Part shown: piece by piece, positions 666 to 29,084 of the stretch
Layout of the letters: every line of letters starts with the position of its first letter
How positions within the stretch are numbered: the stretch's first letter is position 1
Origin: Nocardia brasiliensis ATCC 700358
Lineage (GTDB): Bacteria; Actinomycetota; Actinomycetes; Mycobacteriales; Mycobacteriaceae
DNA: 32,000 nucleotides
Direction: 5' to 3'
Assembly (NCBI RefSeq): GCF_000250675.2
Contig: NC_018681.1
Location: 4,897,031 to 4,929,030, forward strand
Notes under the pieces: model-generated
Databases searched by the model: none
What the model saw: only the letters and a program-made list of their open reading frames with translations
What the model was told of the DNA's origin: nothing
Program-made: the position numbers and the translations under genes

Positions 666-950
666 GGACTTTCCTAGTCTTGGGCGGCGACCACGGCCAC
701 CGCGAGCCATGTCGTTCTTCTGTGCGGAGATTAGGCCGGTGCGTCGGCGCGGAGAAACCCCAGTCGGCGAGTGGGGAACGGCGCCGGGTGGCGGCATACT
801 CGCAGCACTCCGTAAGGTGTCGCACAACAGGTTTCGCCGATTCGCGCATCTTTTGCGCCCGCCCGGGTAAAGCACGGCCAACAGCGGTCACCGGAGGTGG
901 TCTCGCCGGACGGCGTGCACCCGTCCGGATCGGCGAGGAGTTCGATCGAA

Positions 951-2048
951 ATGCAGGCACTCACGGTAGGTTTCGAAGAGGAATTTCTGCTGGTCGACGC
1001 GGAAGGCCGGCCGGTACCCGAATTCGACACGGTCTGCGGCTGGCTGACGGACAAACTCGAGGCGGCCGACAGCGCCCGGTTCAAGCCGGAACTGCAGCTG
1101 ACGCAGATCGAGACGATCAGCGGCATCCACACCAGCATGACCGCGCTGGCGAGCGAATTGCGCAGCGCCAGAGCCACGCTCGCCGCCGCGGGGGACGCGT
1201 GCGCCGTGACGGTGCTGCCGGTCGGCACCGCGCCGCAGTCGATCGCCGACGACACTCCCCTGCCCGATTCGGCCCGCTATGCCCGCATCCACGACCGGTA
1301 CCGGGGTGTGCTCCGCGACTACACCGCGTGCGGGGCGCACGTGCACATCGGCGTCGCCGATCCGGATCGCGCCGTGGCCGTCGTGAATCATCTGCGGCCG
1401 TGGTTGCCGACATTGCTTGCGGTCGGGGTGAATTCACCCTTCCATCGCGGCCGCGACTCCGGGTACGGCTCCTGGCGGATCGCCGAGCAGGCCCGCTTCC
1501 CCGGCGCCGGACTGCCGCCCTACGCGCGTTCGGCCGACGACTACGACGCGCGGATCGCCACCCTCCTCGAATGCGGCACGCTCGTCGACGATCACATGTC
1601 CTTTTGGCTGGCCCGGCCGTCGAAGGTGTACCCCACCGTGGAGGTGCGCGCCGCCGACACCGCCGCCACGGTGGACGACGCGATTTTGCAGGCGGTGCTC
1701 ACCCGCGGTTTGGTGCAGACGGCCCTGAACAAGCTGGACGAGGGTGTGGAAGGCCCGCGCATCGACGAACAGGTTGGCGCCGCGGCGATTTGGGCCGCCG
1801 CGCGCTACGGATTGGCCGGCCCCGCCGTCGATCCGATCGAAGAGATCCGGGTGCCCGCGGTATCGCTGCTGCGTTCCCTCGTCGCCTGGATCGCCGACGC
1901 GCTCACCGCCACCGACGACACCGCCGTGGCAAAGCGGCTGTTGCGCAATGTCGAACGCCACGGCACCGGCGCCGCCCGGCAGCGCCGGGCCGCACAGCCC
2001 GGCCTGCGCCACCTCGTCGACACGTTCCGCCTGACCACCTGGTCGTGA
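951..2048 (+). CDS. Carboxylate-amine ligase, YbdK / glutamate-cysteine ligase family 2
   Basis: The track ORF 897..2048 begins with GTG. I prefer ATG 951, which is preceded by GAGGAG (935-940). The N-terminus MQALTVGFEEEFLLVD and the overall ~365 aa length are typical of YbdK/GCS2 enzymes. Confidence 0.85.
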   Translation: MQALTVGFEEEFLLVDAEGRPVPEFDTVCGWLTDKLEAADSARFKPELQLTQIETISGIHTSMTALASELRSARATLAAAGDACAVTVLPVGTAPQSIADDTPLPDSARYARIHDRYRGVLRDYTACGAHVHIGVADPDRAVAVVNHLRPWLPTLLAVGVNSPFHRGRDSGYGSWRIAEQARFPGAGLPPYARSADDYDARIATLLECGTLVDDHMSFWLARPSKVYPTVEVRAADTAATVDDAILQAVLTRGLVQTALNKLDEGVEGPRIDEQVGAAAIWAAARYGLAGPAVDPIEEIRVPAVSLLRSLVAWIADALTATDDTAVAKRLLRNVERHGTGAARQRRAAQPGLRHLVDTFRLTTWS

Positions 2049-2126: not shown

Positions 2127-2369
2127 CTAGCTCTGCTGATGTCCGGCTTGGCGCGCCTCGTTCACATCGGCTTCCGCGCGGGCCTTCTCCGCGGCGGCTT
2201 CCTTCTGCGCTGCCTCGCGCTGGGATTCGGCTTTGTCCTGCTGCGCCTTGCCCTCGCCTTTGAGGCTCTCGTCACCGGTGACGACACCGGCGGCCTCCTT
2301 GGCCTTGCCTTTCACGTCTTCGACGACACCTTCGACGCCCTCGCGGGGGCCACTTCCATGTTCTGACAC
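2127..2369 (-). CDS. CsbD-family general stress protein
   Basis: 80 aa with a GTG start (cac at 2367-2369) and GAAAGGTG upstream. The repetitive KGKAKEAAG...GDESLKGEGKAQQ pattern is typical of CsbD. Confidence 0.85.
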   Translation of the reverse strand: MSEHGSGPREGVEGVVEDVKGKAKEAAGVVTGDESLKGEGKAQQDKAESQREAAQKEAAAEKARAEADVNEARQAGHQQS

Positions 2370-2448: not shown

Positions 2449-3288
2449 TCAGAGGATCGGCCTGCCGCCGGTCACGGCGATCCGCGCGCCGGAGATGTAG
2501 CTACCGTCGTCGGAGGCGAGCAGAACGTAGGCCGGGGCGAGTTCGGCGGGCTGGCCCGCGCGCCCGAGCGGCACGTCGTCGCCGAAGTTCGCCACCTTCT
2601 TCGGCGGCATCGTCGACGGGATCAACGGCGTCCAGATCGGCCCCGGCGCAACGCTGTTCACCCGGATCCCGCGTTCACCGAGCAGCTGGGCCAGGCTCGC
2701 GGAGAAGTTCGCGATCGCCGCCTTCGTCGCCGCATAGGGTGCGAGAGTCGGTGAGGGCATATCGGAGTTGACCGACGAACTGCCGATGATCGACGCACCC
2801 GGCCGCATATGCGGCAGCGCGGCTTTGACCAAGCGGAAGTACGCGCTGACGTTCACCTGGAAGGTGTGATCGAACTCCTCGTCGCTGATCTCCTCCAGCG
2901 TCTCGTGCGTCATCTGGTAGGCCGCGTTGCTCACCAGGACGTCGATCTTCCCGAACTCCTGCACGGCCCGATCGATAACGGTCCGGCATTGCCCCGGCTC
3001 GGCGAGATCGCCGGGCACCAGCACCGCCTTGCGCCCGGCCTGCTCGACCAGCTCGGCCACTTCCTTGGCGTCTTCGTCCTCGCTCAAATAGGAAAGCAGC
3101 ACGTCCGCGCCTTCGCGCGCGAAGGCGATCGCGACCGCGCGCCCGATACCGCTGTCGGCGCCGGTGATCACAGCCGCCTTGCCGGTCAGCTTGCCCGACC
3201 CCCGGTAGCTGTCCTCCCCGCAGTCCGGCACCGGATCCATTCGCGCCTGCACGCCGGGAACCGGCTGCTGCTGTTCAGGAAATCCCAT
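2449..3288 (-). CDS. SDR-family NAD(P)-dependent oxidoreductase (YghA/YhxC-like)
   Basis: The true start is taken at ATG 3288 (MGFPEQQQ...) with AGAGGAG directly upstream; the 334-aa track ORF is over-extended. The TGADSGIG cofactor motif, NAAY and YAATKAA (YxxxK) catalytic motifs are present. Confidence 0.9.
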   Translation of the reverse strand: MGFPEQQQPVPGVQARMDPVPDCGEDSYRGSGKLTGKAAVITGADSGIGRAVAIAFAREGADVLLSYLSEDEDAKEVAELVEQAGRKAVLVPGDLAEPGQCRTVIDRAVQEFGKIDVLVSNAAYQMTHETLEEISDEEFDHTFQVNVSAYFRLVKAALPHMRPGASIIGSSSVNSDMPSPTLAPYAATKAAIANFSASLAQLLGERGIRVNSVAPGPIWTPLIPSTMPPKKVANFGDDVPLGRAGQPAELAPAYVLLASDDGSYISGARIAVTGGRPIL

Positions 3289-3416: not shown

Positions 3417-5144
3417 CTACCCGGCGACCTCGACTGGCCTCGTGGGCAGCCAATTATCCTGCAACAGTTCGGATATGAACTCGATCACCGCGTCCTGGCC
3501 CCCGTCGGAGCGCCTGCCTGCCAACGGCAGATCGTGCAGCGTGAACGTGCGCGGATCGATGTCACACGCGGCCGTCGGGTAGCCGATGCGGGTCGCCGCG
3601 CGAGCCATGATCACCTGCATCATGGCCTCGAGCACGCGCCGGTTGGCGCCGAGCCGGCGACGTATCTCCGCCGACCCGAGCGGACCGTGATCGCCAGACG
3701 TGCCGAACGACGATTTCAGGGCCGGCGTGCCGGTGTGATCGAAGAAGTGGCAGTGATCGCGTCCCGGTTCCCGTTCGTCCCATTCCCGGAAGAAGGCCTG
3801 CATGCGCTCGTTCAACAGCCGGAAGTCGGCCAGCTCGGCGCCGACGACCGCGGGCGCGTAGGCGTCGGTGGTGTTGCTGCGGATCAGCAGGCCCAAGAAC
3901 GCATGGTGCAGATACCGGTCGAAGACCAGTTTCGCGAACCACACCTGCGGGTTGCCCATCAGCCTGTACTGATCGGTCCAGACCGGCAGCAAAGTGTCGT
4001 ACACCTCGAGGTAGAAGTCGTTCAAGCGCGCCGCGAGGTCGTCGGTCGCCGCCCCGTCGAGGTCGCGGACGACCATATCGGTCACCAAGGTATTGGACAT
4101 CGCGATGAAATCGCTGCCGGGCGAGTAGAGCGGATCGTTGAAGACACCCGCCTCGCCGGTCAACGCCCACCGATCGCCGGAATACACCTGCGCACAACTG
4201 TGCGCGAAGTGCCGCAGCCGCTTGAAGTCCTGCAGCGACTCCCGGTGCCTGGCGACGGCGCGCGCGACCTCGGGTTCGTGCCGGGTCAGCCAGTCGAGCG
4301 CGGCCTCGAACGTGCCGATTTCCTCGAACGGCACATATCGCGGGTCGGACACGATACCGACACTGATCGACCCCGACACCAGGGGGATGAGCCAGACCCA
4401 ATAGCCCTTTCCCATCAGATGATTGGTGGACCGCCAGCGCAATCCCTCCGGAACCCTTTCTCGCCAGGCCGATTTGGCAGCCGCAGAAGTGCCGACCTCT
4501 TCCTCGACGAGTTCATCCATCCAGATCATCTCGCTCAGCCGGAACCAGACGGCGTCGCAGTTGTGCGGGCTGTCCTTGCGCAGGCCCAGCTTGCTTTTGA
4601 GCAGGCCGCGCCGACCGGTGGCGTCGATCACCCACCGTGCCCGCACCGTCTGTCCCGCGCCCGCCCGCGCGATCACGACCTCGTGCGGCGCATCCGATTT
4701 CAGACGTACGTCGACGACTCGATACCCGTGCCGGAATTCCGCACCGCCCGCGACGACGATGGCACCCAGCGCGTTCTCGAAGACGCCGCGATCGAGCTGA
4801 AAGGTCGCCGACGCGTAGAAGAACCCGCTGGGCCCCGATTCCGCACGCTGCGACAGCGGCGGCGGCGGGACCGAAACGGACGGCAGGAACCGCAGGCCGG
4901 TCTTACGAATCTGGCTCTGCTCCAGGTGTTCTCGCAGCTGTAGCGTTTCCGCGAAGTAGGTGCCGCTGATCACGACGGTGGATTCGCCCACCTTGTGCGC
5001 GGCCGCGCGCACCGGATGCGGCACCCGCTCCACCACGAGAACGGTGGTGTCCGGCCTGCGCAAGAGCACTTGCCGCGCGAGACTGAGCCCGGCCAGCCCA
5101 CCGCCCAGCACAACGACGTCATAGTCCGAACGGTCGGTGATCAC
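3417..5144 (-). CDS. Flavin-dependent halogenase-family protein (tryptophan-halogenase-like FAD enzyme), 575 aa
   Basis: Hidden inside the 1193-aa track ORF 3417..6998. The start is GTG 5144 in a GTGA overlap with the upstream gene's stop. It has VVVLGGGLAGL (GxGxxG), HKVGES, GYWVWLIPL (WxWxIP, nt 4383-4400) and GEAGVFNDPLYSPG (FxxPxxSxG, nt 4116-4142). Confidence 0.8.
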   Translation of the reverse strand: MITDRSDYDVVVLGGGLAGLSLARQVLLRRPDTTVLVVERVPHPVRAAAHKVGESTVVISGTYFAETLQLREHLEQSQIRKTGLRFLPSVSVPPPPLSQRAESGPSGFFYASATFQLDRGVFENALGAIVVAGGAEFRHGYRVVDVRLKSDAPHEVVIARAGAGQTVRARWVIDATGRRGLLKSKLGLRKDSPHNCDAVWFRLSEMIWMDELVEEEVGTSAAAKSAWRERVPEGLRWRSTNHLMGKGYWVWLIPLVSGSISVGIVSDPRYVPFEEIGTFEAALDWLTRHEPEVARAVARHRESLQDFKRLRHFAHSCAQVYSGDRWALTGEAGVFNDPLYSPGSDFIAMSNTLVTDMVVRDLDGAATDDLAARLNDFYLEVYDTLLPVWTDQYRLMGNPQVWFAKLVFDRYLHHAFLGLLIRSNTTDAYAPAVVGAELADFRLLNERMQAFFREWDEREPGRDHCHFFDHTGTPALKSSFGTSGDHGPLGSAEIRRRLGANRRVLEAMMQVIMARAATRIGYPTAACDIDPRTFTLHDLPLAGRRSDGGQDAVIEFISELLQDNWLPTRPVEVAG

Positions 5145-6226
5145 GGTACGAGCGTCCCTTCGCACGCGGCGGCGACGGGTCGCAGCACCTCGTCCATGCA
5201 GCGTTGCATCGCCCGGTACGTGGGTTCTCCCGGCGGATTGGCGTCGAAGGCGAGTATGAAATGCGTTAGCCCGGTCGACTCGTACAGCTCGGTGAGGCGG
5301 TCCCGGCAGCGCTGCGGCGTACCGACCAGATTGAGCGGAATCATCTTCTCGACCACACCGGAAGCGTCCCGGCCCCCGGCCTTGCGGCCCGCGTCCACCG
5401 CGTCGAAATAGGTGCGGTAATTCGGCAGCAGGTGCCGGCGCGCGAGCAACCCGTTCGAGGTCGCGCCCTCGGCGACCCACCACCCCACGTGCTCGCGTAC
5501 GGTGTCCGCGGCGCGGTCGTTCGTATCGTCCAGTACGGCAATGCAGGTCAGCGCGTGCCGCGCGGCCGCGTCGAGCTGTCCGTGCGGTCCGGCCGTTTCG
5601 CGGTAGCGCGACATCAGTGCCCGCTTCTCGTTGTCGGGCATGGCTTCTCGGATCAGCAGTGGATATCCGTGGGCGGCCGCCCACCGGACGGTGTCCGGCG
5701 ACCCAGAGGCGACGTAGACCGGCGGATGCGGGTGCGTCAGCGGCTTCGGCTGCACCGGCACCGCGTCCAGCGTGCCGTCCATCGAGGAGATCACGTACGG
5801 CTCTTCGCCCCACGCCCGCACCACCTGGTCCATGGTCTCGACCAAGGCGAGGTGATTCACCGTCATATCGACCGCGAAGGCTTCGAAGTCCCGGGCGTAG
5901 GTGCCGCGCCCGATGCCGAAATCGAAACGACCACCGCTGAGATGATCGAGCATCGCGACTCGTTCGGCGAGCTTGATCGGATGTTCCAGCGGAACGATCG
6001 TGATCGCAGAGCCGACTCTGATCCGCTCGGTTCCGCCCAGCAGGAACGACGCCATGTTGAGGGCGTTGGTGCACAGGCTGTAGTTGGTGAAATGGTGTTC
6101 CAGCAGCCAGATTCCGGAATAGCCGAGTTCCTCGGCCCACTGCGCCGACTGGGTCGCGGCCGCGAATGTCTCCCGCTGACCGATACCGGGCCGCTGCGCG
6201 ACGCTCAGTACGATGTCGAATCTCAT
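5141..6226 (-). CDS. Luciferase-like (LLM class, LuxA/LuxB-type) flavin-dependent monooxygenase
   Basis: 361 aa starting at ATG 6226, with GGAGGAG in the 15-nt gap upstream. IWLLEHHFT, GRFDFGIGRG, PVYVASGSPDTVRWAAAHGYPLL and LNLVGTP align block-by-block with Vibrio LuxA as I recall it (WLLEHHFT, GRFRFGICRG, PVYVVAES..EWAAERGLPMI, INPVGTP). Confidence 0.9.
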   Translation of the reverse strand: MRFDIVLSVAQRPGIGQRETFAAATQSAQWAEELGYSGIWLLEHHFTNYSLCTNALNMASFLLGGTERIRVGSAITIVPLEHPIKLAERVAMLDHLSGGRFDFGIGRGTYARDFEAFAVDMTVNHLALVETMDQVVRAWGEEPYVISSMDGTLDAVPVQPKPLTHPHPPVYVASGSPDTVRWAAAHGYPLLIREAMPDNEKRALMSRYRETAGPHGQLDAAARHALTCIAVLDDTNDRAADTVREHVGWWVAEGATSNGLLARRHLLPNYRTYFDAVDAGRKAGGRDASGVVEKMIPLNLVGTPQRCRDRLTELYESTGLTHFILAFDANPPGEPTYRAMQRCMDEVLRPVAAACEGTLVP

Positions 6227-6241
6227 CTCCGGGTCTCCTCC

Positions 6242-7432
6242 CTAGACGTAGTCCACATAGGCCGGTGCGGCCGGCGGCCGTTCCCTCCCGGTGACGTTCA
6301 CGAGCGTCACGGTGTCGCGCCTCAGCCATCCGGCCCGCGCCAGCTTCAGCGCGCAGGCCAGGGCCACCGACGAGGTGAGACACGCATCGACCCCTTCCAG
6401 GTCCCGGGCAAGTCGTCTGGCCGCGAGAATCTCCCGATCCGGCACGGCCTCGAAGGCACCGCCCGTCGCCTGCACGATCCGGTGCACGAATGGGTAGGAG
6501 TCCGCCGGGTTTCCCCGCAGGATCGCCTTGGCGATACCGCTCGGCCGCCGTTTGATGTGCTCGGGGCGGATCGTCGCCGAGTTGTCTCGGAAGGCCTCGT
6601 ACATCGGCGCGCACCGCGATTGCTGGGCGCATACGATGCTCGGCACCCGCGCCAGCCTGCCGAGCGCCACATATTCGGTGGCGCCTTTGAACGCACCGTA
6701 GATACCCATCCCGCTGCTCACCGCCTGGACGACCACGTCGGGTGCGCGCGGCGCCAGTTGGTCGAACGCCTCGAGGTAGGCGAGCTTCAGGCCTTCGCGC
6801 CGCGCCGGGTTGAAGAAACCGCTCTCGAACGGCAGTCCGCGGTCGGCGGCGAACCGTGCCGCCGCCGCACCCGCACCGACATAGTCGGCGTCTACGCAGT
6901 ACACCCGCACATTGGGCGCGTCGGGCACATCGATCCGGTCCAGGAAATCCCGCGCGCAGAAAATGTGCAGCGTCACCTCCGGCATGCGCGCGGCGCACCG
7001 GCCCATCGAGGTCGAACTGTTGCCGGTGGACGAGACGACGAATTCGGTCACGCCCTGCTGCACCAGGAACGGCATCGCCACCCCCGCCATGCGGTCCTTG
7101 GCGGTCCCGCTCGGGTTGGCGCTCTCCACTTTCAGATACAGGAAGTCCAAACCCGCCCAGCGCCCGAGTTCACGTGCCCACAGCAGCGGAGTGTTGCCCT
7201 CACCGAGCCAGACAGCGTGCTGAAAGTCGTTCAACGGCAACAGATCGAACCAGCGCACCAGCGGGTTGTCGTCGTCGCGGATCCGCGCCCGGGTCAAGTC
7301 GTAGAACACATCCGTGGCGCCCGCGCAGCGGGGGCAGCGCGGCACGAAAGCGGCCGCGACGCCGAATCCGCAAGCCCGACACTCCAATACGACCCGCTTG
7401 CGCAACTGCGGCGTGGTCGATGTCTCGATCAT
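6242..7432 (-). CDS. Fold-type II PLP-dependent enzyme, threonine-synthase-like, with N-terminal Zn-ribbon
   Basis: 396 aa. CRACG...CPRCAG is a CxxC...CxxC ribbon. GNTPLL and KVESANPSGTAKDR contain the PLP-lysine motif (compare PTGSFKDR). Its ATG 7432 overlaps the upstream stop (ATGA). Confidence 0.85.
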   Translation of the reverse strand: MIETSTTPQLRKRVVLECRACGFGVAAAFVPRCPRCAGATDVFYDLTRARIRDDDNPLVRWFDLLPLNDFQHAVWLGEGNTPLLWARELGRWAGLDFLYLKVESANPSGTAKDRMAGVAMPFLVQQGVTEFVVSSTGNSSTSMGRCAARMPEVTLHIFCARDFLDRIDVPDAPNVRVYCVDADYVGAGAAAARFAADRGLPFESGFFNPARREGLKLAYLEAFDQLAPRAPDVVVQAVSSGMGIYGAFKGATEYVALGRLARVPSIVCAQQSRCAPMYEAFRDNSATIRPEHIKRRPSGIAKAILRGNPADSYPFVHRIVQATGGAFEAVPDREILAARRLARDLEGVDACLTSSVALACALKLARAGWLRRDTVTLVNVTGRERPPAAPAYVDYV

Positions 7433-8544
7433 CTCGCCGTACCTTCGGTCGCGTAGGCCGACGCACCCGTGAGAGTCATGATGGCCATACGTGATCCGAT
7501 GCCCATCCGATGCAGCGTTCGACCGTTCCGGTACAGGTCGCGGCCGGTCGCGGCCGAGGCCATAGTGACGATGGCGTCGAACTGCCGGTGCGGCGTGCCG
7601 ACCAGCGCGGCAAGCGCGGCCAACGGCACCGCACCGGTCCGCACATGCTCATCGAGGAATCGATGGTCGGTACCGCGCGGGGCGAGGATGGACCGATATC
7701 CGGGGGCGGCACGCAGCGCGTCGACCAAACTGGGTGCGGTGCACTCGTAGGTGTGCCCGAACCATTCGAGCGCGGTCGGCAACCGTACGCCCACCTCGCG
7801 CCCGAGCAGCACCCGCTCCCGGTCGGAGGCCTCGATGATCCGGGCGACCGCAGCCGATACGCCCTCGGCGTAGAAACGATGCCGGTCGCCGTGGTCGAGC
7901 CGCGCCAGATTGGCCAGTGCCACAACGGGTTGGATCACGGCCGTGACATTGGCCAGACTCGTCTCCCAGATCGAGCCCACGCTGCGGACGGCGGGAAAAC
8001 TCCGCGCGAGCAGGTCGCGGGCGATGTCCGCGTGCCGCCGCTGTCGTGCCCCGAGCGGAACATCCTTCTTGTACTGGAAGATTCGGACGGTCGAGGATCC
8101 TTCGCCGCGGCAGACGAACGGCAGGTTCATCTCGGCGAGAGCCGGGCCGAGCGCGCTCTCACACCAGCCCACCCGATCGCGCAACGCGGTGGTGACCTCC
8201 AGGACGCCGCCGGTGTGCCCGGGCACGAGCACGACCGCTGCGGCTTGCCGCAGCGCGGGCCAGGACGCTGTGACCAGGTCACGATGTGCGGCTGCGGAAA
8301 TCGCGACCAGGACGAGATCCGCGCCCGAGCACACCGCCGCAAGATCGGTCGACACCGCGGCCAGGCGGACCGTACACGCGTCCGGGTCGCGCAGGGTCAG
8401 TGTCGCGTCCTCGATATCCGCGAGATGCGCTGCGGTCCGGTTCCAGAGCCGGACTTCGCAGCCGGCCCGCGCCAGCACTGCCGCCAGCGCCCGGCCCGCA
8501 TCGCCCGCGCCGAGTACCGCCGCCTTGATCGACTTGTCCCCCAT
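7429..8544 (-). CDS. NAD(P)-dependent octopine/nopaline (opine) dehydrogenase-family protein
   Basis: 371 aa. The N-terminal Rossmann motif is KAAVLGAGDAGRALAAVLARAG. The length and C-terminal helical domain are consistent with the opine dehydrogenase family. The start lies 2 nt after the luxC-like stop. Confidence 0.75.
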   Translation of the reverse strand: MGDKSIKAAVLGAGDAGRALAAVLARAGCEVRLWNRTAAHLADIEDATLTLRDPDACTVRLAAVSTDLAAVCSGADLVLVAISAAAHRDLVTASWPALRQAAAVVLVPGHTGGVLEVTTALRDRVGWCESALGPALAEMNLPFVCRGEGSSTVRIFQYKKDVPLGARQRRHADIARDLLARSFPAVRSVGSIWETSLANVTAVIQPVVALANLARLDHGDRHRFYAEGVSAAVARIIEASDRERVLLGREVGVRLPTALEWFGHTYECTAPSLVDALRAAPGYRSILAPRGTDHRFLDEHVRTGAVPLAALAALVGTPHRQFDAIVTMASAATGRDLYRNGRTLHRMGIGSRMAIMTLTGASAYATEGTAR

Positions 8545-8546
8545 CG

Positions 8547-9992
8547 TTATTCGCTCGAATCACGAACCGGCAGACCGTATATCCGCTGCTCGAACTCGGC
8601 TCGATCGGCGGCCCGGAAGCGGCCTCGGTAGTCCAGACCGCGTTCCACCGAGACCCAGCGCACCAGCGAGTGCAGCGGACGCATCTCGTCGTGCACGAAC
8701 CCGGGGCGGGGCCTGCTCATCAAGCCCACCTCGGTGACGCGCGAGGCGCCGGCCAGGGTGAGTGCGCGCCCGAGCTGCTTGCCGCGGTGCCACGGATACA
8801 CGGCGACGGTCTGCGTGTCTCGGTGCACCGCCGCCACGGCGTCCGCCAGCCGCGCGACAGAATAGACGTAGGCGGTCCGGCCCAGCGGGTGTTCCAGTTC
8901 CGGTGTCTCCCCCGGCGGGACAGTCACCACCGTCCAGTCGGACCCGGCGCTCTGCCGGACCCGGTACCCGTCGAACCGGGCCTCCTGTCGCGCCCGGGTG
9001 ATGTGCGCCTGTGCGTCCACGGTCCGAAAACCGCACGGAAGCCGTTGCGCCACATGCTCGAGCCCGCGCACGAGACCGGCGGCGAAGACGTCGCCGTCGC
9101 CTTCCACAAAGATCCGCTGCGGACTGAAGCAGGCCTCCTGCTCATAGACGCTCAGGTCGTACGCCGCGCGCACCGCGACGTCCGCCCAGCCGCCGTCGTC
9201 GGCACCGATCAAGATGATGCTCTCTTTCGGGCCGAACTCCACCAGCTCGGTCCCGACCGGGATCCGCGGCTTGATCGCCGCGATCGAGGAGTGTTTTCCC
9301 CACGCGCACACCACATCCGAAGCGTCGATGAAATCCTGCTCCACCGGATCACCGCCGGGCCAATAGAGTACGGAGAGCGCGCGGGTGAGCGGATGCCAGG
9401 GATCGACGTCGGCGAAGGTGCGGGCGAAGGCGAGCGTCGAGACCAGATCGCGGCGCGGCAGTTTCGCGACGGTCACGTTCTTCGTGAGCAACCCGCGAAT
9501 CACCGTGAACAACCCGGCCAGCGGAACATTGCCGACCATCAAATGCAGTACGCGCCCTTTGGGCAACGCCCGCAGGAAGATCGACTGCTTGGGCAGCCAA
9601 TCATCGAGCAGCAGCGGATTGTCCAGGTCTGTCTCGACGATGTCATAGAGCTTGGCCCGAGCGCAGGCGCGCGCGATCCGCGTGTAGTCGTCCTCGATCA
9701 TCGTCTCGTGGTAGCCGGTGATCCGTGCCGCCAGCGCGACGGCGTCGCGGCGGCCGGGGTAGCCGGGATCGCCCCACAACCGGCCGACCCGCTCGAGGAA
9801 AACCGTGATCTCGTCCAGGTGCAGCTCGGCGAGCGCATCTCGTTGCGTCTTCAGCACGTCCCGGACCAGTTCGGCGGTCGGCCGGGGAATCGTGATCCGC
9901 CAACCCGATTCGTAGGTGACTACGAGCGGTTCGACCCCGCTGTCGGCCACCGTCTCGCCGTTCACGAGAATCGGCAACGCTACCTCGTGCAT
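8547..9992 (-). CDS. luxC: LuxC-family acyl-CoA / acyl-protein reductase (aldehyde-forming)
   Basis: The start is taken at ATG 9992 (MHEVALPILVNGE...) with GGGAG upstream. It overlaps the upstream gene's stop by 13 nt. LHLMVGNVPLAGLFTVIRGLLTKNVTVAKLP and YEQEACFSPQRIFV (candidate nucleophile Cys) are characteristic of the LuxC branch of the aldehyde dehydrogenase superfamily. Confidence 0.8.
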   Translation of the reverse strand: MHEVALPILVNGETVADSGVEPLVVTYESGWRITIPRPTAELVRDVLKTQRDALAELHLDEITVFLERVGRLWGDPGYPGRRDAVALAARITGYHETMIEDDYTRIARACARAKLYDIVETDLDNPLLLDDWLPKQSIFLRALPKGRVLHLMVGNVPLAGLFTVIRGLLTKNVTVAKLPRRDLVSTLAFARTFADVDPWHPLTRALSVLYWPGGDPVEQDFIDASDVVCAWGKHSSIAAIKPRIPVGTELVEFGPKESIILIGADDGGWADVAVRAAYDLSVYEQEACFSPQRIFVEGDGDVFAAGLVRGLEHVAQRLPCGFRTVDAQAHITRARQEARFDGYRVRQSAGSDWTVVTVPPGETPELEHPLGRTAYVYSVARLADAVAAVHRDTQTVAVYPWHRGKQLGRALTLAGASRVTEVGLMSRPRPGFVHDEMRPLHSLVRWVSVERGLDYRGRFRAADRAEFEQRIYGLPVRDSSE

Positions 9993-11278
9993 CCGGCACT
10001 CCCGGCCTGTTCGCTCGGCAGCAGCTCCAGCACACCGCCCGCGCGGAAGGTCTCCTGCACGACGAGCCGCACCCACTGGGCGTACCGAATCACGTGGCGT
10101 AGGTTGTCCACCGCGAAGCGGCGCTCGGGATCATGCGACAGCCGGACCACCCGGAAGTCACCCATCATCGGCGGCAGTGTGTGTTCGGCGCGGTCACGGT
10201 GGTAACTCACTTCGAACGCCGAACGGCCGCCGGTCGAGCACCCGACGGTCTGATGACCGCGGTAGTGGGTGTCCTCGTTGAAAAAGATCATGTTGTCGGC
10301 GGCCTTCTCGACCCATTCGCCGCGCAGGCAACCGTCGCCGAAATAGTTCACCACCGCTTTGCGCTTCAGCTTGATCATCCGGGCCCGCAATGTCGCACGC
10401 AGGCGCTGCTCCGACTCGTGCCCCAGTTGCTCGGCGAAGCGGGCCAGGGCCAGGCCCTCATCGATCACCGTATGCGTGAAGAACTGGTCGGACGCGTCCA
10501 GCTCGCCGGGGCGGTCGAGCAGCACCCCGCGCACGCAGGTGACCGTCACATGATCGACCGCGAGGGCGCGATCGCGCACCGCGCACCGCATCAGCGCCTC
10601 GACCAGCTCCTTGGATTGCCCACGGGCGGTGAGGCATTGCCTGGTGGCCGCGGGCAGCCAGCGCGCGGCCACGCGCGTGTCGGGCAGGCCGGGTGCGATT
10701 TCGGTCAGCCCCTCGACCACCTGGCCGGGCAGTTCGGTCCAACTCACCTGCGCGCGGGCGAGCAGACCCTCTGTGCGATGCCATTTCGCACCGTCGATCA
10801 CGGAATACCTGAAGTAGTCCCGTTCGACGTGTTCCCTGACCATCCGGGTGCGATCGGCGAGTTCCAGGAGGGGCAGGTGATCCAGTGTCCTCGGCTGGCC
10901 GATCGACAGCAGGTAACCGCCCAGCCGTTGCGCCAGCACCGCACGCACCGCACGCAGCGAGAATTCACCGTCGAGTTGTTCGAGACCGATTCCGGCGCGT
11001 CGCAGCACGGCCAGCCCGAGGACGAGTTCCGCGTCGGCCTCGGTCCACGTTCCGTACGGACGTGCCTCGACCACGGTCAGCGCGTCCCGGAATTCCTTTC
11101 GGCCGTGCCAGGTCCCGTCGAAACGCAGCCAGTGATGCCTGCTGAAGATCAACGTGGCGCCCGCGGCCCGGATCAGCTCCCGCACCGAGTCCGCGGCATC
11201 GTCTGCGGCACAACGGGACAACAGTCCGGTGACGTCATCCAGCGCCGACGTGCTCGTCGGTATGGTCTCGATCGACAC
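9980..11278 (-). CDS. Hypothetical protein, no family recognised (first gene of the minus-strand operon)
   Basis: The track ORF 9980..11290 starts at TTG. I prefer GTG 11278, which has GGAG 6 nt upstream. The long ORF has coding-like composition and is translationally coupled to the luxC-like gene. The C-terminal segment FFNEDTHYRGHQTVGCSTGG...YHRDRAEH is rich in potential metal ligands. Confidence 0.7.
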   Translation of the reverse strand: MSIETIPTSTSALDDVTGLLSRCAADDAADSVRELIRAAGATLIFSRHHWLRFDGTWHGRKEFRDALTVVEARPYGTWTEADAELVLGLAVLRRAGIGLEQLDGEFSLRAVRAVLAQRLGGYLLSIGQPRTLDHLPLLELADRTRMVREHVERDYFRYSVIDGAKWHRTEGLLARAQVSWTELPGQVVEGLTEIAPGLPDTRVAARWLPAATRQCLTARGQSKELVEALMRCAVRDRALAVDHVTVTCVRGVLLDRPGELDASDQFFTHTVIDEGLALARFAEQLGHESEQRLRATLRARMIKLKRKAVVNYFGDGCLRGEWVEKAADNMIFFNEDTHYRGHQTVGCSTGGRSAFEVSYHRDRAEHTLPPMMGDFRVVRLSHDPERRFAVDNLRHVIRYAQWVRLVVQETFRAGGVLELLPSEQAGSAGCTR

Positions 11279-11290
11279 GATCGGCTCCAA

Positions 11291-11573
11291 TCAGAGGTAC
11301 GCGGTGCGTACGGGAATTGCTGGGGAGCACTGCGCCGAAACTATCACCGAATTTTCACTGACGCGATAACCCGAAAGTCACATCGAGTATGTGACCGATG
11401 ACTCGGCGAATACCGCGCCGTCGTACGAATGACGTTACCCGGCGCGCGTTTTCGAATATCGAATCGCGGTAAGTGTGCCGAACGGAGCATTGACAGCGCC
11501 TGCGGAATTCCCGTTTGGTGGACAGGGAGCACGAACTGGCCGAGAAACTCTGGCACGAGGAGCCCTGGGAACA
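11291..11573. promoter_or_regulatory. Divergent promoter/operator region of the lux-like cluster
   Basis: A 283-bp non-coding gap between divergent operons, locally AT-richer. It contains the perfect palindrome GTCACAT-n5-ATGTGAC (11377-11395) and TTCGA-ata-TCGAA (11451-11463). Confidence 0.5.
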
Positions 11574-11795
11574 ATGCGAGTGTGGATCGAACGCGCGCTC
11601 TGCCAAGGTGCGGAGCTGTGCTGCGAACATGCCGCGGCGGTGTTCGCGACGGACGACGAATATGTGGCGTACGTGAAGGCGGACGTCGGCGCCGACTGCG
11701 CGCACAAGGCGCTGCTCGTGCCCGGCGAACACGAGGAACAGGTGCGCCGCGCCGAGGCAGAATGCCCGTCACGCTGCATCAACATCATCGACTGA
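11574..11795 (+). CDS. Small ferredoxin ([3Fe-4S]/[4Fe-4S] type)
   Basis: 73 aa from ATG 11574 (MRVWIERALCQGAELCC...ECPSRCINIID). The CxGxxxC...CP cluster-binding pattern matches actinomycete ferredoxins. The track ORF 11475.. is over-extended. Confidence 0.8.
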   Translation: MRVWIERALCQGAELCCEHAAAVFATDDEYVAYVKADVGADCAHKALLVPGEHEEQVRRAEAECPSRCINIID

Positions 11796-11819
11796 CCGGG
11801 CGCCGGCCGAGGACAGACC

Positions 11820-12953
11820 ATGACAACGCACGCCAAGGTCACCGTCATAGACTCCATTCGGGCGATCGATGACCTGATCCATCAGCGCGACGATGCTTTC
11901 ACGCTCGCCGGGGCCGAGCTCAATGAACTCCGCGACGAATTGATGCGCGCCGCGGTCCGCCACCATTGGCAGCACTGCGCGTCCTACCGGCGCTATGCCG
12001 AAGCCAACGAATGGTCGCTTTCCCGGCTGGACCTGCCCGGTTTCATCGAATCGTTGCCGCTGATACCGGCCTCGGTGTTCAAGCGTCACGACGTTTCGAG
12101 CTGTGCGCCCGAAAAGGTGGTGCAGGTCTGCACCAGCAGCGGTACCCGGGGTACGAAAAGCCGGATATATCGCGACGGAACCACCCTGGAACGTTTTGTC
12201 GGCAGCATCGATCAGGGCAGCCGGCTCGCGCTACCGAATCCCGACATCGAACGGCAGCTGTTCGTACTGGGGCCGGACACCGGCGAGGCCGGCGATCTCT
12301 GGTTCTCCTACGTACTGAGCATCGTGGATCTGCTGCATCCCACCCGATTCTTCGTCACCGCGGGCATTTTCCGGATCGACGAGGTGATCGACGCGTTGCT
12401 CGACGAGTCGGTCGAGCGGCCGGTGGTGATCGGACCACCGGTCCTGGTGCGGGATCTCGCAACAGCGCTGCGCGAACGCGGCATCGATCCCGGCCTCGGT
12501 GCGCGCAATGGTCTCGTCATCACCGCGGGCGGCTGGAAGCGCGCGAACGCGACGGCGATGTCCCGGCGGGACTTCGAGGAATTCGTCACGGCCGCTTTCG
12601 GTTTGGCCGGCGACGCGCCGATCCGCGACTGCTACAACGCGGTCGAGCTGAACACCGTGCTGTTCGAATGCCGGTTCCGGGCCAAACACGTGCCCGCATG
12701 GCTGCATACGAGTGCGCGGGATCCGGCGACAATGCGGCCGCTGCCGCCTGGCGAGGTGGGCGTGCTCGCGTTCTGCGACGCCTCCCCCACCAGCTATCCG
12801 GGATTCGTGGCGACCGATGATCTGGGCTCGGTGTCGCGCGAGGGAAGTTGCCCGTGCGGCAACGACTCCGCGGTGCTCACCGTGGTGCGCCGCATCGCGA
12901 CGGCCGAAACTCGCGGCTGCGCCCTACGACTCGACGCCGAGGTCATCCGATGA
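11820..12953 (+). CDS. luxE: LuxE-family acyl-protein synthetase (long-chain-fatty-acid--luciferin-component ligase-like)
   Basis: 377 aa starting at ATG 11820, with GAGGA upstream. It has the TSSGTRGTKS adenylation P-loop, WKR, and a C-terminal ...AETRGCALRLDAEVIR. The Cys (nt 12918-12920) lies 10 residues from the C-terminus, the position I recall for the acylated Cys of LuxE. Confidence 0.85.
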   Translation: MTTHAKVTVIDSIRAIDDLIHQRDDAFTLAGAELNELRDELMRAAVRHHWQHCASYRRYAEANEWSLSRLDLPGFIESLPLIPASVFKRHDVSSCAPEKVVQVCTSSGTRGTKSRIYRDGTTLERFVGSIDQGSRLALPNPDIERQLFVLGPDTGEAGDLWFSYVLSIVDLLHPTRFFVTAGIFRIDEVIDALLDESVERPVVIGPPVLVRDLATALRERGIDPGLGARNGLVITAGGWKRANATAMSRRDFEEFVTAAFGLAGDAPIRDCYNAVELNTVLFECRFRAKHVPAWLHTSARDPATMRPLPPGEVGVLAFCDASPTSYPGFVATDDLGSVSREGSCPCGNDSAVLTVVRRIATAETRGCALRLDAEVIR

Positions 12954-13957
12954 CGACTGCACCAGTAGGACAACGCCGTTCGACCACTCCGGTGACCGTC
13001 CGGTCGGAGCGGTTCGAACTGCCCACGCCCCGCGGCATGTTGCGTGGCCTGCGCCAATACCAGCCCGACAACCACGATCCGGTCGGCCGCGTCATCGTGG
13101 CGCCGCCGTTCGGCACGGTGATGCGGCGCGGCCGTGGCATCGCCCTCTACTTTCTCCTCAACGGGTTCGACGTCATTCGCTACGACCCCACCAATCATGT
13201 GGGCGAAAGCGACGGAACTATCCGGGAATTGACCCCCGATGCCCTCGCCGCGGATCTGGCGCTGGTGCACGACTGGGTCGCGACCTCCGGCCCGCGCCGC
13301 GGGCCCGCCGCCCTGTTCACCGCGAGTATCGCCTCGCGCATCGCATTCGCGACGGCCGCGCGGTCGGGTCGGCGTCCGGTCGCGATCGGCGCCATCTCCG
13401 CTGTGGTCGACATGCAGGCCACCATCGCGGCGGCCAACGACCAGGACTTCATCGGGCAGTGGCTGCGCGGCGAGCAGACCGATCCCGACCGCACCGCGCT
13501 CGTCCTCGACCACGAGGTGAAATGGCGGTTCGTGCAGCGGTTGGTCGAATTGGGCTGGCACACCACCGAGTCCACCCGCGTCGATATCCGATCGATCGGG
13601 TCTGTGCCGATTCTGGCGGTCCAGGGCAGCCGCGACTCCTGGGTCGATCTGCGCGCCGTGGCGGATGCCTTCCGCGACCACGCGTCGGCCGACATCGTCG
13701 TGCTGTCCGATGCCACGCACGAACTCAACACCGCGAGTGCCCGCACGGCGCTCGCCGAACTGGTTCGCTTCTTCCGGCCCGCGCCCGCGACCGGCGATCC
13801 CGTCCTCGCCCCGACCTTCGCGCACGTCGTCGCGCAGAACAAGGGCGAGCGACAGATCGACCGGTCGCAGCCGGACGGTTTCGCCGTGGAAGTCACCCAT
13901 TGCGCACCGTTCGACTACGACTTGGGCCCGGGTGCCTCTTCGGCCCCCACCACGTGA
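12950..13957 (+). CDS. luxD: LuxD-family acyltransferase / acyl-ACP thioesterase (alpha/beta hydrolase)
   Basis: The start ATG 12950 overlaps the luxE-like stop (ATGA). IVAPPFGTVMRRGRGIALYFLLNGFDVIRYDPTNHVGESDGTIRELT aligns with Vibrio LuxD LIASGFARRMDHFAGLAEYLSENGFHVFRYDSLHHVGLSSGSIDEFT. LFTASIASRIAF aligns with LIAASLSARVAY, the nucleophile Ser region. Confidence 0.85.
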   Translation: MTTAPVGQRRSTTPVTVRSERFELPTPRGMLRGLRQYQPDNHDPVGRVIVAPPFGTVMRRGRGIALYFLLNGFDVIRYDPTNHVGESDGTIRELTPDALAADLALVHDWVATSGPRRGPAALFTASIASRIAFATAARSGRRPVAIGAISAVVDMQATIAAANDQDFIGQWLRGEQTDPDRTALVLDHEVKWRFVQRLVELGWHTTESTRVDIRSIGSVPILAVQGSRDSWVDLRAVADAFRDHASADIVVLSDATHELNTASARTALAELVRFFRPAPATGDPVLAPTFAHVVAQNKGERQIDRSQPDGFAVEVTHCAPFDYDLGPGASSAPTT

Positions 13958-15345
13958 TCGGCCGCGCCGGTACCGTCGTGGGTTGCCGCGGCGCCGTTGT
14001 CCGACGTCGCCGCAGCATGATTCGACGCCGTGGCGAGCAGCGGCGGACGCGGCGTTCGCGGGAACGCGTAGTCCAGCCACATGCCGGCCAGCGAGGACGT
14101 CACAATGGAGAGCACCACGATGCTGGTGAAGAATTCCTCGTTGATGAGACCCGCGGACAAGGTGACGGTGGCCAGCACGATTCCCGGGCCACCACGTGCG
14201 TTCAGCGCGACGGCGAAATTCTTGGCGTGCCGGTTCGATTCGCCCACCGCGCGCGCGGCGGCCCAGATGCTGAGCCCCTTGACCGCGGTTGCCGTCAGCA
14301 AGAAGGCGGCGAAGAACACGAGGTCGAAATTGCGTGCCAGATCGAGTTGCATGCCCACCCCGGCGAAGTAGATCGGGATGAAGAACGCCAGCGAGAAGTC
14401 CTTGATCGTATCCCATGCGCCTGCGCCCGGCGTCGACTCTCCGTCTTGATTACTTTGCGGCGCAATGACATCGGAGGAAGCGATGCCGGCCAGCAGTGCG
14501 CCGAAGATGGCGTTGATCCCGAGGAATACACACGAAAGGACCAGCGCGAGTGCGAATACCAGCCGGAACGCGATCGGGTTCGCCTTCTCCATCAGATTCG
14601 CCTTGCTCGCGGCCAGCCGGTTGAACAACCACTTGCCGGCCAGCAGCAGCGCCGTGATGAAGACCAGGCTGACGATCACCTGATACGCCATCGCACCCGT
14701 ACCGTGTAGCTGCAGCAGTGAGCCGAGCCCGAACGTCTTCTGGTCGCCCTGGACCAGGCTGAACGTCACGGCGAGCGCCACATACAGCACGACGTCCTCG
14801 AGCAGCGCCACCGCCAGGACGACCCGGGCGAAGCTGGTGTTGAGCAACCCGAGGTCGAGCATTATTCGCGAAATGACCGGAATGCTGGTGACCGCGAAGG
14901 CGATTCCGAAGATGAGGGCGAAGGTGGCGTCGGTCCCGTGCGGGCCGGAGTAGTCGGCGTGGTCGAGCGCGAGGGCCACCCCGACCCCGAGCACCATCGG
15001 AATCACCAGCCCGGCCGCGGCCAGCGCCGCCACGGTGCGCTGCTTGCCCGGATTGCGATAGGTCATGACCTCTCGCCCGGCCAGGAACATCAGCAGCAGC
15101 AGTCCGAACTCATTGAGCATCTGGATTCCGGCGTGGACGACGCCGTCGGCGGGGAACAGTTGGCTCGCCACACCCGGCGCCACCTGCCCGAACACCGTGG
15201 GCCCGAGGAACAGTCCACCGAGGATCTCTCCGATCACCGGCGGCTGGCGCAGTTTCGCACAGATCTGCGCACCGAGATGGGCGGCGACGAGGATGATGAT
15301 CAGTGCGATGAACAGACTGGCGAAATCGCCACGGGACAGCGACAT
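13915..15345 (-). CDS. flH: Cation:proton antiporter (Na+/H+ exchanger family; FlH-like)
   Basis: The start is taken at ATG 15345 (MSLSRGDFASLFIALIIILVAAHLG...) with AAGGAGGG upstream. It is a polytopic membrane protein with QPPVIGEILGGLFLGP, typical of CPA antiporters. The 544-aa track ORF is over-extended. Confidence 0.9.
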   Translation of the reverse strand: MSLSRGDFASLFIALIIILVAAHLGAQICAKLRQPPVIGEILGGLFLGPTVFGQVAPGVASQLFPADGVVHAGIQMLNEFGLLLLMFLAGREVMTYRNPGKQRTVAALAAAGLVIPMVLGVGVALALDHADYSGPHGTDATFALIFGIAFAVTSIPVISRIMLDLGLLNTSFARVVLAVALLEDVVLYVALAVTFSLVQGDQKTFGLGSLLQLHGTGAMAYQVIVSLVFITALLLAGKWLFNRLAASKANLMEKANPIAFRLVFALALVLSCVFLGINAIFGALLAGIASSDVIAPQSNQDGESTPGAGAWDTIKDFSLAFFIPIYFAGVGMQLDLARNFDLVFFAAFLLTATAVKGLSIWAAARAVGESNRHAKNFAVALNARGGPGIVLATVTLSAGLINEEFFTSIVVLSIVTSSLAGMWLDYAFPRTPRPPLLATASNHAAATSDNGAAATHDGTGAADHVVGAEEAPGPKS

Positions 15346-15357
15346 TTGACCCTCCTT

Positions 15358-15380
15358 GCAGGCCGATGCCGGCGGCCTGC
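15358..15380 (-). promoter_or_regulatory. Intercistronic stem-loop abutting the antiporter RBS
   Basis: 8-bp GC stem gcaggccg / cggcctgc with a 7-nt loop. On the mRNA it ends 1-2 nt before AAGGAGGG-n4-AUG. No U-tract. Confidence 0.4.
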
Positions 15381-15415
15381 CGGAACTCGCCCGGCCGGCC
15401 GCCGACAGTGCTGGA

Positions 15416-16336
<921 letters not shown>

Positions 16337-16406
16337 TTACTGTGCGGTGAATTCCGCCACCTCCACGGGCGGAAATCTCGATGCCCGGTAGCCGCCCGGG
16401 CGGGCG

Positions 16407-17861: not shown

Positions 17862-18091
17862 AAATGCTCGACCACTGTCCGTACTGACGATAGGGCGACG
17901 TACCGCCCAATACAACGCAGATCAGCGGGGTAAGCAGAAAATACGACGGCAAGCAATTGGTGACACACCGTAATGTGTAGCAATTTGCGCCGATCGGTAC
18001 ATCGCGGGCCGGATCGGACCGCCGATATCCTGAAGATCGTTGTCAGACAGTAAAGTCGCGCCGAAATGCGGCGAACTCCGGGACGGATACC
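17862..18091. promoter_or_regulatory. Divergent promoter region (ahcY-flA-flH operon vs phosphorylase-apt operon)
   Basis: A 230-bp non-coding gap between divergently transcribed genes, with an AT-richer stretch at 17935-17990. No specific element could be assigned. Confidence 0.45.
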
Positions 18092-18970: not shown

Positions 18971-19005
18971 CACCCTCCCCGACTCTCGAGACCGCAGGAT
19001 TCGTC

Positions 19006-22600: not shown

Positions 22601-22607
22601 GCCGCCC

Positions 22608-23183: not shown

Positions 23184-23241
23184 CGACCACCGTTCGCTAG
23201 AATGTGCCGCTGGGCTCAATCTAACGTACCGGGCTGGGTGA

Positions 23242-25849: not shown

Positions 25850-25872
25850 GTGCGCGCTCTCCGACCCCAGTG

Positions 25873-26115: not shown

Positions 26116-26155
26116 CAGCAGACCTCCGAGAATGTATGTTCTGTCGGCAATCGGA

Positions 26156-29066: not shown

Positions 29067-29084
29067 CACTTGCCTCCCTACGTC

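Follow-up and report, generated by a model that had tools for sequence, protein, structure and literature searches.

Organisation of the locus

The stretch of Nocardia brasiliensis ATCC 700358/HUJEG-1 DNA considered here (NC_018681.1, 4,897,031–4,929,030; its full 32,000 nt are called the window, and positions are counted from its first letter) carries at 3417–13957 a cluster of nine genes, in which homologs of the bacterial bioluminescence proteins LuxC, LuxD, LuxE and LuxA are found together with a halogenase, a ferredoxin, two enzymes of putative amino acid metabolism and a protein of no known family. The nine genes were delimited by an analysis of the G+C content at third codon positions (GC3) by frame and by the listing of open reading frames (ORFs); each has one stop codon and no internal stops, and a GC3 of about 0.8–0.88 backs the reading frames. 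Six genes are transcribed from the minus strand, in the order protein A (the protein without a family; 9980–11278; 432 aa), a LuxC-like acyl-thioester reductase (8547–9992; 481 aa; WP_014985129.1), an NAD(P) oxidoreductase resembling opine dehydrogenases (ODH-like; 7429–8544; 371 aa), a pyridoxal phosphate (PLP) enzyme related to threonine synthase (ThrS) and cysteate synthase (6242–7432; 396 aa), a LuxA-like member of the luciferase-like flavin monooxygenases (LLM; 5141–6226; 361 aa; WP_014985126.1), and a flavin-dependent halogenase (3417–5144; 575 aa; GTG start). The plus-strand genes encode a single-cluster ferredoxin (11574–11795; 73 aa), a LuxE-like acyl-protein synthetase (11820–12953; 377 aa; WP_014985132.1) and a LuxD-like acyltransferase/thioesterase (12950–13957; 335 aa). 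An exact-sequence look-up showed the LLM, LuxC-like and LuxE-like proteins to be identical to the entries of this strain under the accessions given.

The minus-strand genes follow one another closely: protein A and luxC overlap by 13 nt, a 2-nt gap separates luxC from the ODH-like gene, the latter and the PLP-enzyme gene share an ATGA overlap, a 15-nt gap containing GGGAGGAG precedes the LLM gene, and the LLM and halogenase genes overlap in GTGA. On the other strand a 24-nt gap lies between the ferredoxin gene and luxE, and luxE and luxD overlap in ATGA. A first-pass annotation, made from the sequence alone, had described nine such genes, their families and these junctions, all of which are borne out by the coordinates and by the Pfam and NCBIfam profiles; overlaps and gaps are exactly as claimed there, and its statement that the six minus-strand genes are translationally coupled is upheld as well. 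The Pfam models LuxC, LuxE, Acyl_transf_2, Bac_luciferase, PALP and Octopine_DH were all matched, Trp_halogenase weakly and over part of its length. The 295 bp between protein A and the ferredoxin gene (11279–11573) presumably hold the promoters of both operons; a sigma-70-like consensus, which is uninformative for actinomycete promoters, is absent from this region, and scans for promoter and terminator consensus sites returned no more of them than in shuffled sequence. No family, and thus no fluoride or other riboswitch, was found in an Rfam scan of the window.

The encoded proteins and their relatives

The LuxC-like protein matches Pfam LuxC at 2.5e-80 and LuxC of Photobacterium phosphoreum (7XC6_A) at 4.6e-76, with the catalytic Cys retained (YEQEACFSPQ versus YDQQACFSTQ), and scores 300 bits on the NCBIfam LuxC equivalog model, the cutoff of which is 750. 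LuxE is matched at 3.6e-64 (Pfam) and 1.3e-62 (7XC6_E); the Lys of the GGWK motif, the RR pair and the C-terminal acylation Cys (ETRGCAL versus EQKGCSL), to which roles in LuxE are assigned in PMC9157457, are retained. The LuxD-like protein is more distant from its relatives, with 3e-17 for Pfam Acyl_transf_2, 2.2e-18 (below the cutoff) for NCBIfam LuxD, and 6.4e-16 for LuxD of Vibrio harveyi (1THT), to which the nucleophile Ser aligns (TASIAS versus AASLSA). Over their entire length, or close to it, the three proteins can be aligned with their Photobacterium and Vibrio counterparts. The prediction that the locus holds all three components of a fatty-acid reductase thus stands, with Cys, Ser and Cys of LuxC, LuxD and LuxE intact in the alignments to 7XC6_A, 1THT and 7XC6_E. 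The chemistry of the three proteins is probably conserved; as all of them lie well below the equivalog cutoffs, their substrate need not be myristate or any fatty acid.

The LLM matches Pfam Bac_luciferase at 3.4e-59. Its top NCBIfam model is the luciferase alpha subunit (8.9e-51, under the cutoff), and its best match in the PDB is 8CBB (4.3e-60), followed by LuxA of V. harveyi (1.9e-48). 8CBB is the LuxA of Enhygromyxa salina (EsLuxA), a working homodimeric luciferase which uses C4–C9 aldehydes. E43-H44-H45-F46 are conserved and the region of the mobile loop is present. According to the ORF listing and Pfam the locus has one LLM gene only, so that a luxB is not present.

With the canonical luxCDABE operon the locus therefore has in common homologs of LuxC, LuxD, LuxE and LuxA with conserved catalytic residues and, presumably, the logic of converting an acid to an aldehyde. 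It differs in lacking luxB and luxG, in gene order, in the split into divergent operons, in the five non-lux genes interleaved with the others, in its actinomycete host, and in that its four Lux-type proteins are far below the NCBIfam equivalog cutoffs. It is closer to the luxB-less operons (CEDA, CAED, AxxCE, DExxCxxA), a wider class described by Vannier et al. (2020), and is in fact one of them: Table S3 of Yudenko et al. lists WP_014985126.1 as Nb3, in a luxB-less operon of the order DExxCxxA and among the luxA-like genes branching near the LuxA/LuxB split, and EsLuxA is the protein the LLM most resembles. The features by which such "protoluciferase" operons are recognised are all found, namely an LLM of 361 aa with His44/His45 and the loop, and luxC, luxD and luxE nearby. 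Only the lux genes are treated in the published accounts, which cover neither the "x" genes (ferredoxin, protein A, ODH-like and PLP enzyme) nor the halogenase, nor the fact, described below, that the cassette also recurs where no LuxA-like gene is present. The first-pass statement that the cluster has no characterised counterpart consequently holds only for its product and for the x genes, and does not hold for the lux-like set, already catalogued as Nb3. Neither a characterised product or MIBiG-type counterpart of the nine-gene cluster nor any characterised cluster joining LuxC/LuxE with an opine dehydrogenase or a PLP enzyme was found in the searchable literature; a paper on the tambjamine reductase TabE proved unrelated.

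The ODH-like enzyme belongs to the Octopine_DH family (1.2e-33) and matches CENDH (1BG6) over its full length (1.7e-45; residues 8–352). Fold, length and the substrate-binding Arg are those of the opine dehydrogenases (CENDH; octopine dehydrogenase, OcDH, 3C7A; staphylopine dehydrogenase, CntM), the equivalent of CENDH Arg292 (R295 in the ODH-like enzyme) being invariant in the alignment. By contrast, His202 of CENDH is replaced by Gln in the enzyme of the window and in all cluster orthologs except that of one metagenomic contig (L009), which has Ile, and Asp297 by His in all orthologs, L009 included. His202 and Asp297 are reportedly the catalytic dyad in the CENDH and OcDH structures (Britton 1998, Smits 2008). 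The designation "opine-type dehydrogenase" is thus right with regard to the family and wrong with regard to the canonical dyad, and with the dyad replaced classical opine chemistry is not to be assumed. The enzyme represents a distinct subfamily, which probably continues to reduce C=N bonds with NAD(P)H but is not a textbook opine dehydrogenase; the swapped Gln/His pair would fit a dedicated, non-classical imine substrate. The catalytic His appears to have been relocated in this subfamily (His to Gln, Asp to His), and the change defines it.

The PLP enzyme is of fold-type II, with an N-terminal zinc ribbon (CxxC...CxxC), and matches Pfam PALP at 6.2e-44. Its relatives in the PDB are ThrS (2D1F, 4.3e-29) and cysteate synthase (9K3C, 2.7e-19); on the NCBIfam models it reaches 150 bits for the threonine synthase PRK08197 (cutoff 303) and 1.6e-30 for cysteate synthase, which it resembles in the motifs NPARREG and QAVSSGMG. 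The PLP-binding Lys (TAKDR; Lys61), the STGN loop and the equivalent of Arg160, the phosphate-binding Arg of ThrS, are kept, while the equivalents of Ser155 and Asn188, which are phosphate ligands in ThrS, are replaced. A true threonine synthase can be rejected, given the score below the equivalog cutoff and the incomplete set of phosphate-binding residues; we read the protein as a putative β-/γ-replacement enzyme acting on activated serine or homoserine, for which the retained Lys, STGN loop and Arg equivalent would leave it competent.

For the halogenase the match to Pfam Trp_halogenase is weak and partial (6.7e-9) and that to NCBIfam CmlS stronger (8.6e-20). The assignment holds nonetheless, as the top relatives of solved structure are all flavin-dependent halogenases (PltA, 3.9e-16; CtcP, 2e-15; CmlS) and the motifs GGGLAG, RKTG, WVWLIP and FNDPLYSPG are present, the Lys of RKTG aligning with K73, the catalytic Lys of PltA. 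The protein thus has all signature motifs of PltA, CmlS and CtcP, and its C-terminal extension is similar in length to that of CmlS and CtcP, but its similarity to them is low (E about 1e-16). Homologs of about 57% identity are located in unrelated polyketide synthase (PKS) or nonribosomal peptide synthetase (NRPS) contexts, and several close homologs are fused to SCP2 lipid-binding domains, which makes lipid-type substrates plausible. The ferredoxin matches Fer4_15 (4e-9) and Fer4_13 (5.3e-6) of Pfam and has the Cys pattern C10-x5-C16 ... C64-P.

Protein A matches no Pfam or NCBIfam family, even at E≤1, and a search of all 28 protein A homologs against Pfam at that threshold returned nothing credible. 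Homologs are few: only 27 clusters among 5.8 billion proteins and, in an exhaustive profile search, 80 representatives at E≤1e-3 among 1.84 billion. Its AlphaFold2 model has a pLDDT of 89.8, and Foldseek of this model against the PDB returned no match at E<0.001. Across the wider superfamily R152, G167, H346, D378 and R380 are invariant. In four distant relatives (P0192, P0195, P0209 and P0204) a protein A-like domain is fused C-terminally to domains of the NAD-dependent UDP-glucose/GDP-mannose dehydrogenases (UDPG_MGDP_dh), and two of the related loci discussed below (L009 and L015) have an ODH-like gene that runs into the beginning of the one for protein A. Fusions and gene overlaps together suggest that protein A is partnered with an NAD(P) dehydrogenase. 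As the dehydrogenase domain of a fusion relative has no BLASTP similarity to the ODH-like enzyme of the window, this Rosetta-stone hint refers to dehydrogenases in general and not to the ODH-like family. Other relatives, of about 600–665 aa, bear N-terminal extensions outside any Pfam family.

A seven-gene cassette travels as a unit across genera

Seven of the nine genes, namely those for the ferredoxin, LuxE, LuxD, protein A, LuxC, the ODH-like enzyme and the PLP enzyme, form a cassette, or core, that recurs in at least eight actinobacterial lineages. Genomic contexts were fetched by way of eight protein A homologs of 37–60% identity and comprise Streptomyces sp. NPDC059517 (L005), Microbispora hainanensis (L006/L007), Actinophytocola sp. 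(L010) and five metagenomic contigs (L008, L009, L011, L012 and L015). All seven families are encoded in every one of them except L012, which is disrupted by transposons; they are syntenic in eight lineages at 37–60% identity and with rearranged gene order, and the orthology of the core genes was upheld gene by gene with tblastn. Elsewhere the core usually is a single co-directional operon, and its order is permuted in L009 and L015. An arrangement that persists at such divergence and through changes of order is more than chance, and the retention of one and the same gene set is strong evidence for one function; the cassette is thereby shown to travel as a unit across genera. L012 represents a decayed copy, with a truncated Octopine_DH gene, neither LuxE nor LuxD, and transposases of the IS66 family beside protein A; evidently the cassette can also be lost or mobilised.

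The two remaining genes behave differently. According to tblastn, an ortholog of the LLM occurs in just one other core locus, that of Streptomyces (63% identity), and no core locus outside N. brasiliensis has an ortholog of the halogenase. Since homologs of the latter reside in unrelated contexts, it is a recruited tailoring enzyme, and its membership in the conserved unit was rejected. The nine genes put forward in the first-pass annotation therefore do not form a single evolutionary unit: tblastn and the contexts of homologs show a conserved core of seven, to which particular lineages have added the LuxA-like gene and the halogenase.

Other lineages have accessory genes of their own. A gene of the heme-oxygenase-like HamA_HO family (PF11251) accompanies the core in four of them (L005, L008, L009 and L015); the Nocardia window lacks such a gene and has the LLM and the halogenase in the accessory position instead. 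L008 has a cytochrome P450 with adenylation–thiolation (A-T) and condensation (C) domains of NRPS, L009 has A and T proteins, and Actinophytocola has, beside a LysE amino-acid exporter, a second PLP enzyme and an enzyme of the Amdase family; near other core loci there are methyltransferases, a glycosyltransferase, and exporters of the ABC-2 and MFS types. From these accessory genes we infer that the product of the cassette is amino-acid-like. The ferredoxin gene lies beside the LuxE or the PLP-enzyme gene in the other loci, most of which are without a P450; protein A, or the HamA_HO-like protein where present, would be its most plausible client.

The nine genes can then be read as one orphan biosynthetic locus, composed of the conserved cassette and two recruited tailoring genes, for a lipid-derived amino-acid pathway; we consider the chances of this being correct to be about even. 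LuxD would draw an acyl chain from acyl-acyl carrier protein, LuxE would adenylate the acid and form a thioester with it on itself, and LuxC would reduce the acyl thioester to an aldehyde with NADPH. The PLP enzyme would turn phosphorylated serine or homoserine into an electrophilic aminoacrylate or vinylglycine species, from which two routes can be envisaged. In route (a), for which CndF/CndE and Fub7 are the precedent, the product of a carbon–carbon β/γ-replacement would cyclise to an imine, and reduction of that imine would give an alkyl-substituted imino acid of the proline or pipecolate type. In route (b) the aldehyde would condense directly with an amino group (reductive N-alkylation), leading to an N-alkyl amino acid. 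The ODH-like enzyme would reduce the C=N bond formed by either route with NAD(P)H, and protein A, probably together with the dehydrogenase and the ferredoxin, would perform a further, possibly redox, step. In Nocardia two two-component flavin enzymes would then tailor the product: the LuxA-type monooxygenase would oxidise an aldehyde or related intermediate, and the halogenase would place Cl or Br on an electron-rich position such as an enol or enamine. The final product would probably be a new, possibly chlorinated, lipid-derived amino acid.

Route (a) has its model in the pathways to 6-methylpipecolate (CndF/CndE) and fusaric acid (Fub7/Fub8/Fub9). For CndF/CndE and Fub7 a PLP-dependent γ-substitution, a cyclic Schiff base and an imine reductase acting on it are documented in sequence. 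What the proposed pathway would have in common with them is a carbonyl compound (aldehyde or ketone) supplied in the manner of a carboxylic acid reductase, a replacement on activated homoserine catalysed by a PLP enzyme, closure to a cyclic Schiff base and a final imine reduction or flavin oxidation; this is an analogy only, with no homology shown. There the aldehyde is provided by an NRPS-like carboxylic acid reductase, here by LuxCDE, and their reductases are short-chain dehydrogenases/reductases (SDRs) or imine reductases, whereas that of the cassette is of the opine dehydrogenase family. Outright membership in this type of pathway was rejected, as the PLP enzyme is a ThrS-like PALP protein of fold-type II and not a fold-type I enzyme resembling cystathionine γ-synthase and using O-acetylhomoserine.

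Several points weigh against the pathway as drawn. CndF and Fub7, the precedents for carbon–carbon bond formation, are enzymes of fold-type I, so that route (a) would be a new activity for fold-type II. Protein A and the ferredoxin are left without assigned chemistry in the scheme, and there is no known product from any of the eight lineages. The distance of LuxD, LuxE and LuxC from the equivalogs means that the starting acid need not be a fatty acid, and re-oxidation of an aldehyde by the LuxA-like enzyme would oppose LuxCDE unless it took place on a later intermediate. The support for the halogenase is at the level of motifs. Finally, the cluster encodes no flavin reductase; with two flavin enzymes in need of free reduced flavin, the reductase must be encoded elsewhere.

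The alternative that stays closest to this pathway is the one suggested in the first-pass annotation, in which the PLP enzyme would make an amino acid, the opine-type dehydrogenase would couple the fatty aldehyde to it reductively, and halogenation of the N-alkyl, opine-like product would follow. The family assignments on which it was built hold (Pfam, match to CENDH), opine dehydrogenases do catalyse reductive C–N coupling, and the accessory genes of L008, L009 and L010 are of amino-acid type. But the His/Asp dyad of the classical enzymes is replaced, halogenation lies outside the conserved pathway, and no role is offered for protein A or the ferredoxin; in this specific form we hold the proposal to be unlikely. 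As it differs from the pathway proposed above only in the way the C–N or C–C bond is formed, it is counted as a sub-case of it, and its general sequence of acid, aldehyde, condensation and oxidation or halogenation remains plausible as one of two equally defensible routes. The altered residue pair of the ODH-like enzyme and the A-T proteins of L008 and L009, presumed to load the product, speak to a small degree for an imino or amino acid made as a dedicated building block; they do not separate route (a) from route (b).

A second alternative takes the locus for what the lux catalogues list it as. In a luxB-less protoluciferase operon LuxCDE would recycle an acid to the aldehyde, a LuxA-like homodimer would oxidise the latter with reduced flavin mononucleotide and O2, and the other genes would be passengers; the benefit might be weak light, consumption of oxygen or reactive oxygen species, or detoxification of aldehydes. 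In favour are the closeness of the LLM to EsLuxA, a proven homodimeric luciferase, and to LuxA of V. harveyi, with His44/His45 and the loop kept, its place in the DExxCxxA catalogue among luxA-like genes with luxC, luxD and luxE nearby, the intact catalytic residues of the three reductase components, and the occurrence of the luxB-less CEDA, CAED and AxxCE operons in other phyla. Against it, in at least five lineages LuxCDE are kept together with protein A, the ODH-like enzyme, the PALP protein and the ferredoxin while no LuxA-like gene lies within 10 kb, which argues that the aldehyde has another fate. Moreover, the supposed passengers lie, translationally coupled, between luxC and the luxA-like gene, the NRPS, exporter and methyltransferase neighbours indicate a metabolite, and even Yudenko et al. 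warn that the function need not be light. We therefore regard a protoluciferase function as decidedly improbable.

Returning to the biosynthetic reading, the lux-like set of the strain was already known from a bioinformatic catalogue. New are the seven-gene cassette itself, in which LuxCDE are recruited for what looks like the biosynthesis of an amino-acid natural product, the family of protein A, absent from Pfam, some members of which are fused to dehydrogenase domains, the exchange of catalytic residues in the ODH-like enzymes, and the finding that LuxA-like gene and halogenase are accessory. A bolder version, that the cassette is a new route to lipid-derived nonproteinogenic amino acids, with LuxCDE employed for biosynthesis, bond formation by a ThrS-like enzyme of fold-type II, protein A, together with the ferredoxin and the ODH-like enzyme, as a new enzyme family with a new fold, and the LuxA-like protein and halogenase of Nocardia acting on the scaffold, seems doubtful to us. 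Nothing so far forces a categorically new mechanism; the locus is a good orphan cluster with leads for enzymology. If the biosynthetic reading is true, actinomycetes have turned LuxCDE and a LuxA of the protoluciferase type to the purposes of secondary metabolism, which would bear on the purpose of the luxB-less protolux operons and on the origin of bacterial luciferase. Protein A, with its confidently predicted fold, the ODH subfamily with the swapped pair and the ThrS-like enzyme with its zinc ribbon are candidates for new chemistry and biocatalysis.

The adjoining nob cluster and the flanks

The nine-gene cluster lies flush against another one, the nob fluorometabolite cluster (13915–26722, identified with Pfam), which went unmentioned in the first-pass annotation and is outside the nine-gene unit. 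Its fluorinase, nobA (15416–16318), matches 1RQP at 2.8e-162 and scores 613.9 bits on TIGR04507 (cutoff 400), and the 4-fluorothreonine transaldolase (20621–22600) reaches 1215 bits on TIGR04506 (cutoff 650). Further genes encode a S-adenosylhomocysteine hydrolase, a purine nucleoside phosphorylase, a phosphoribosyltransferase, a homolog of methylthioribose-1-phosphate isomerase, helix-turn-helix-cupin and LuxR-type regulators, and an EamA permease, presumably an exporter. It is one of few fluorine-fixing clusters known. The border is formed by nobH, a Na+/H+ antiporter gene on the minus strand, the 3′ end of which overlaps that of the LuxD-like gene by 43 nt (13915–13957); a terminator scan found no terminator-like structure between the two, and convergent transcription at this overlap could couple or disturb the expression of both clusters.

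A supercluster has to be considered, in which LuxE and LuxC would reduce fluoroacetate to fluoroacetaldehyde, either in place of an FlK-type resistance or in order to feed the transaldolase; in another variant a new amino acid, fluorinated and perhaps chlorinated as well, would be made by the PLP and ODH-like enzymes from fluoroacetaldehyde or 4-fluorothreonine. Besides the tail-to-tail overlap, three lineages of N. brasiliensis have the two clusters side by side (about 88–98% protein identity), both systems handle aldehydes and β-hydroxy amino acids, and the nob pathway is without a clustered aldehyde dehydrogenase, aldolase or FlK; Wang et al. 2014, who defined the cluster, found no flK and detected no fluorometabolites in this strain. 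The idea in all its forms is nevertheless very unlikely to be correct, as no nob gene (fluorinase, transaldolase or other) lies within 10 kb of the core in L005–L011 and L015, which comprise four metagenomic lineages besides Streptomyces, Microbispora and Actinophytocola, vertical descent by itself would keep neighbours together within one species complex, and nobH is the last gene of the cluster as defined by Wang et al. With the core living elsewhere without a fluorinase, a functional link is unlikely, and the nob genes are best taken as a putatively independent unit, already characterised; the fl and nob clusters (flA–flL of Streptomyces cattleya, nobA–I of N. brasiliensis) have no gene in common with the nine-gene cluster, next to which the latter of the two is merely located. 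Fluorinase clusters of other genera, too, are not known to include lux-like genes. N. brasiliensis is a human pathogen and a cause of actinomycetoma; its fluorinase pathway has been termed "latent", and any work to activate or engineer this part of the genome should take the cryptic halogenating neighbour into account.

The minus strand at the distal end of the nob cluster encodes a stand-alone aminoacyl-tRNA editing protein (26156–26722; tRNA_edit at 1.2e-18, no NCBIfam model). Its role may resemble that of FthB, the fluorothreonyl-tRNA deacylase of S. cattleya. The gene is not in the table of Wang et al.

On the other side of the nine-gene cluster, three genes were judged to be outside it: a YbdK/GCS2 carboxylate-amine ligase (897–2048, plus strand), a small CsbD-like ORF (about 2127–2369, minus strand), named after the matching gene call in locus L001, and an SDR of the general-stress type (2449–3288, minus strand), which is located 128 nt downstream of the halogenase gene on the same strand. 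The SDR was considered as a tenth gene and rejected; it is of the general-stress type with the CsbD-like gene next to it, and has about 29–32% identity to SDRs near other core loci. The right flank of the window (27345–31924, minus strand) starts with an endolysin-like protein that has Peptidase_M15 and glucosaminidase domains and matches PHROG endolysin families with E-values down to 5.8e-35; it is followed by ORFs of 707 aa and 224 aa, both outside any Pfam family, and the whole may be a prophage remnant or an operon for cell-wall remodelling.

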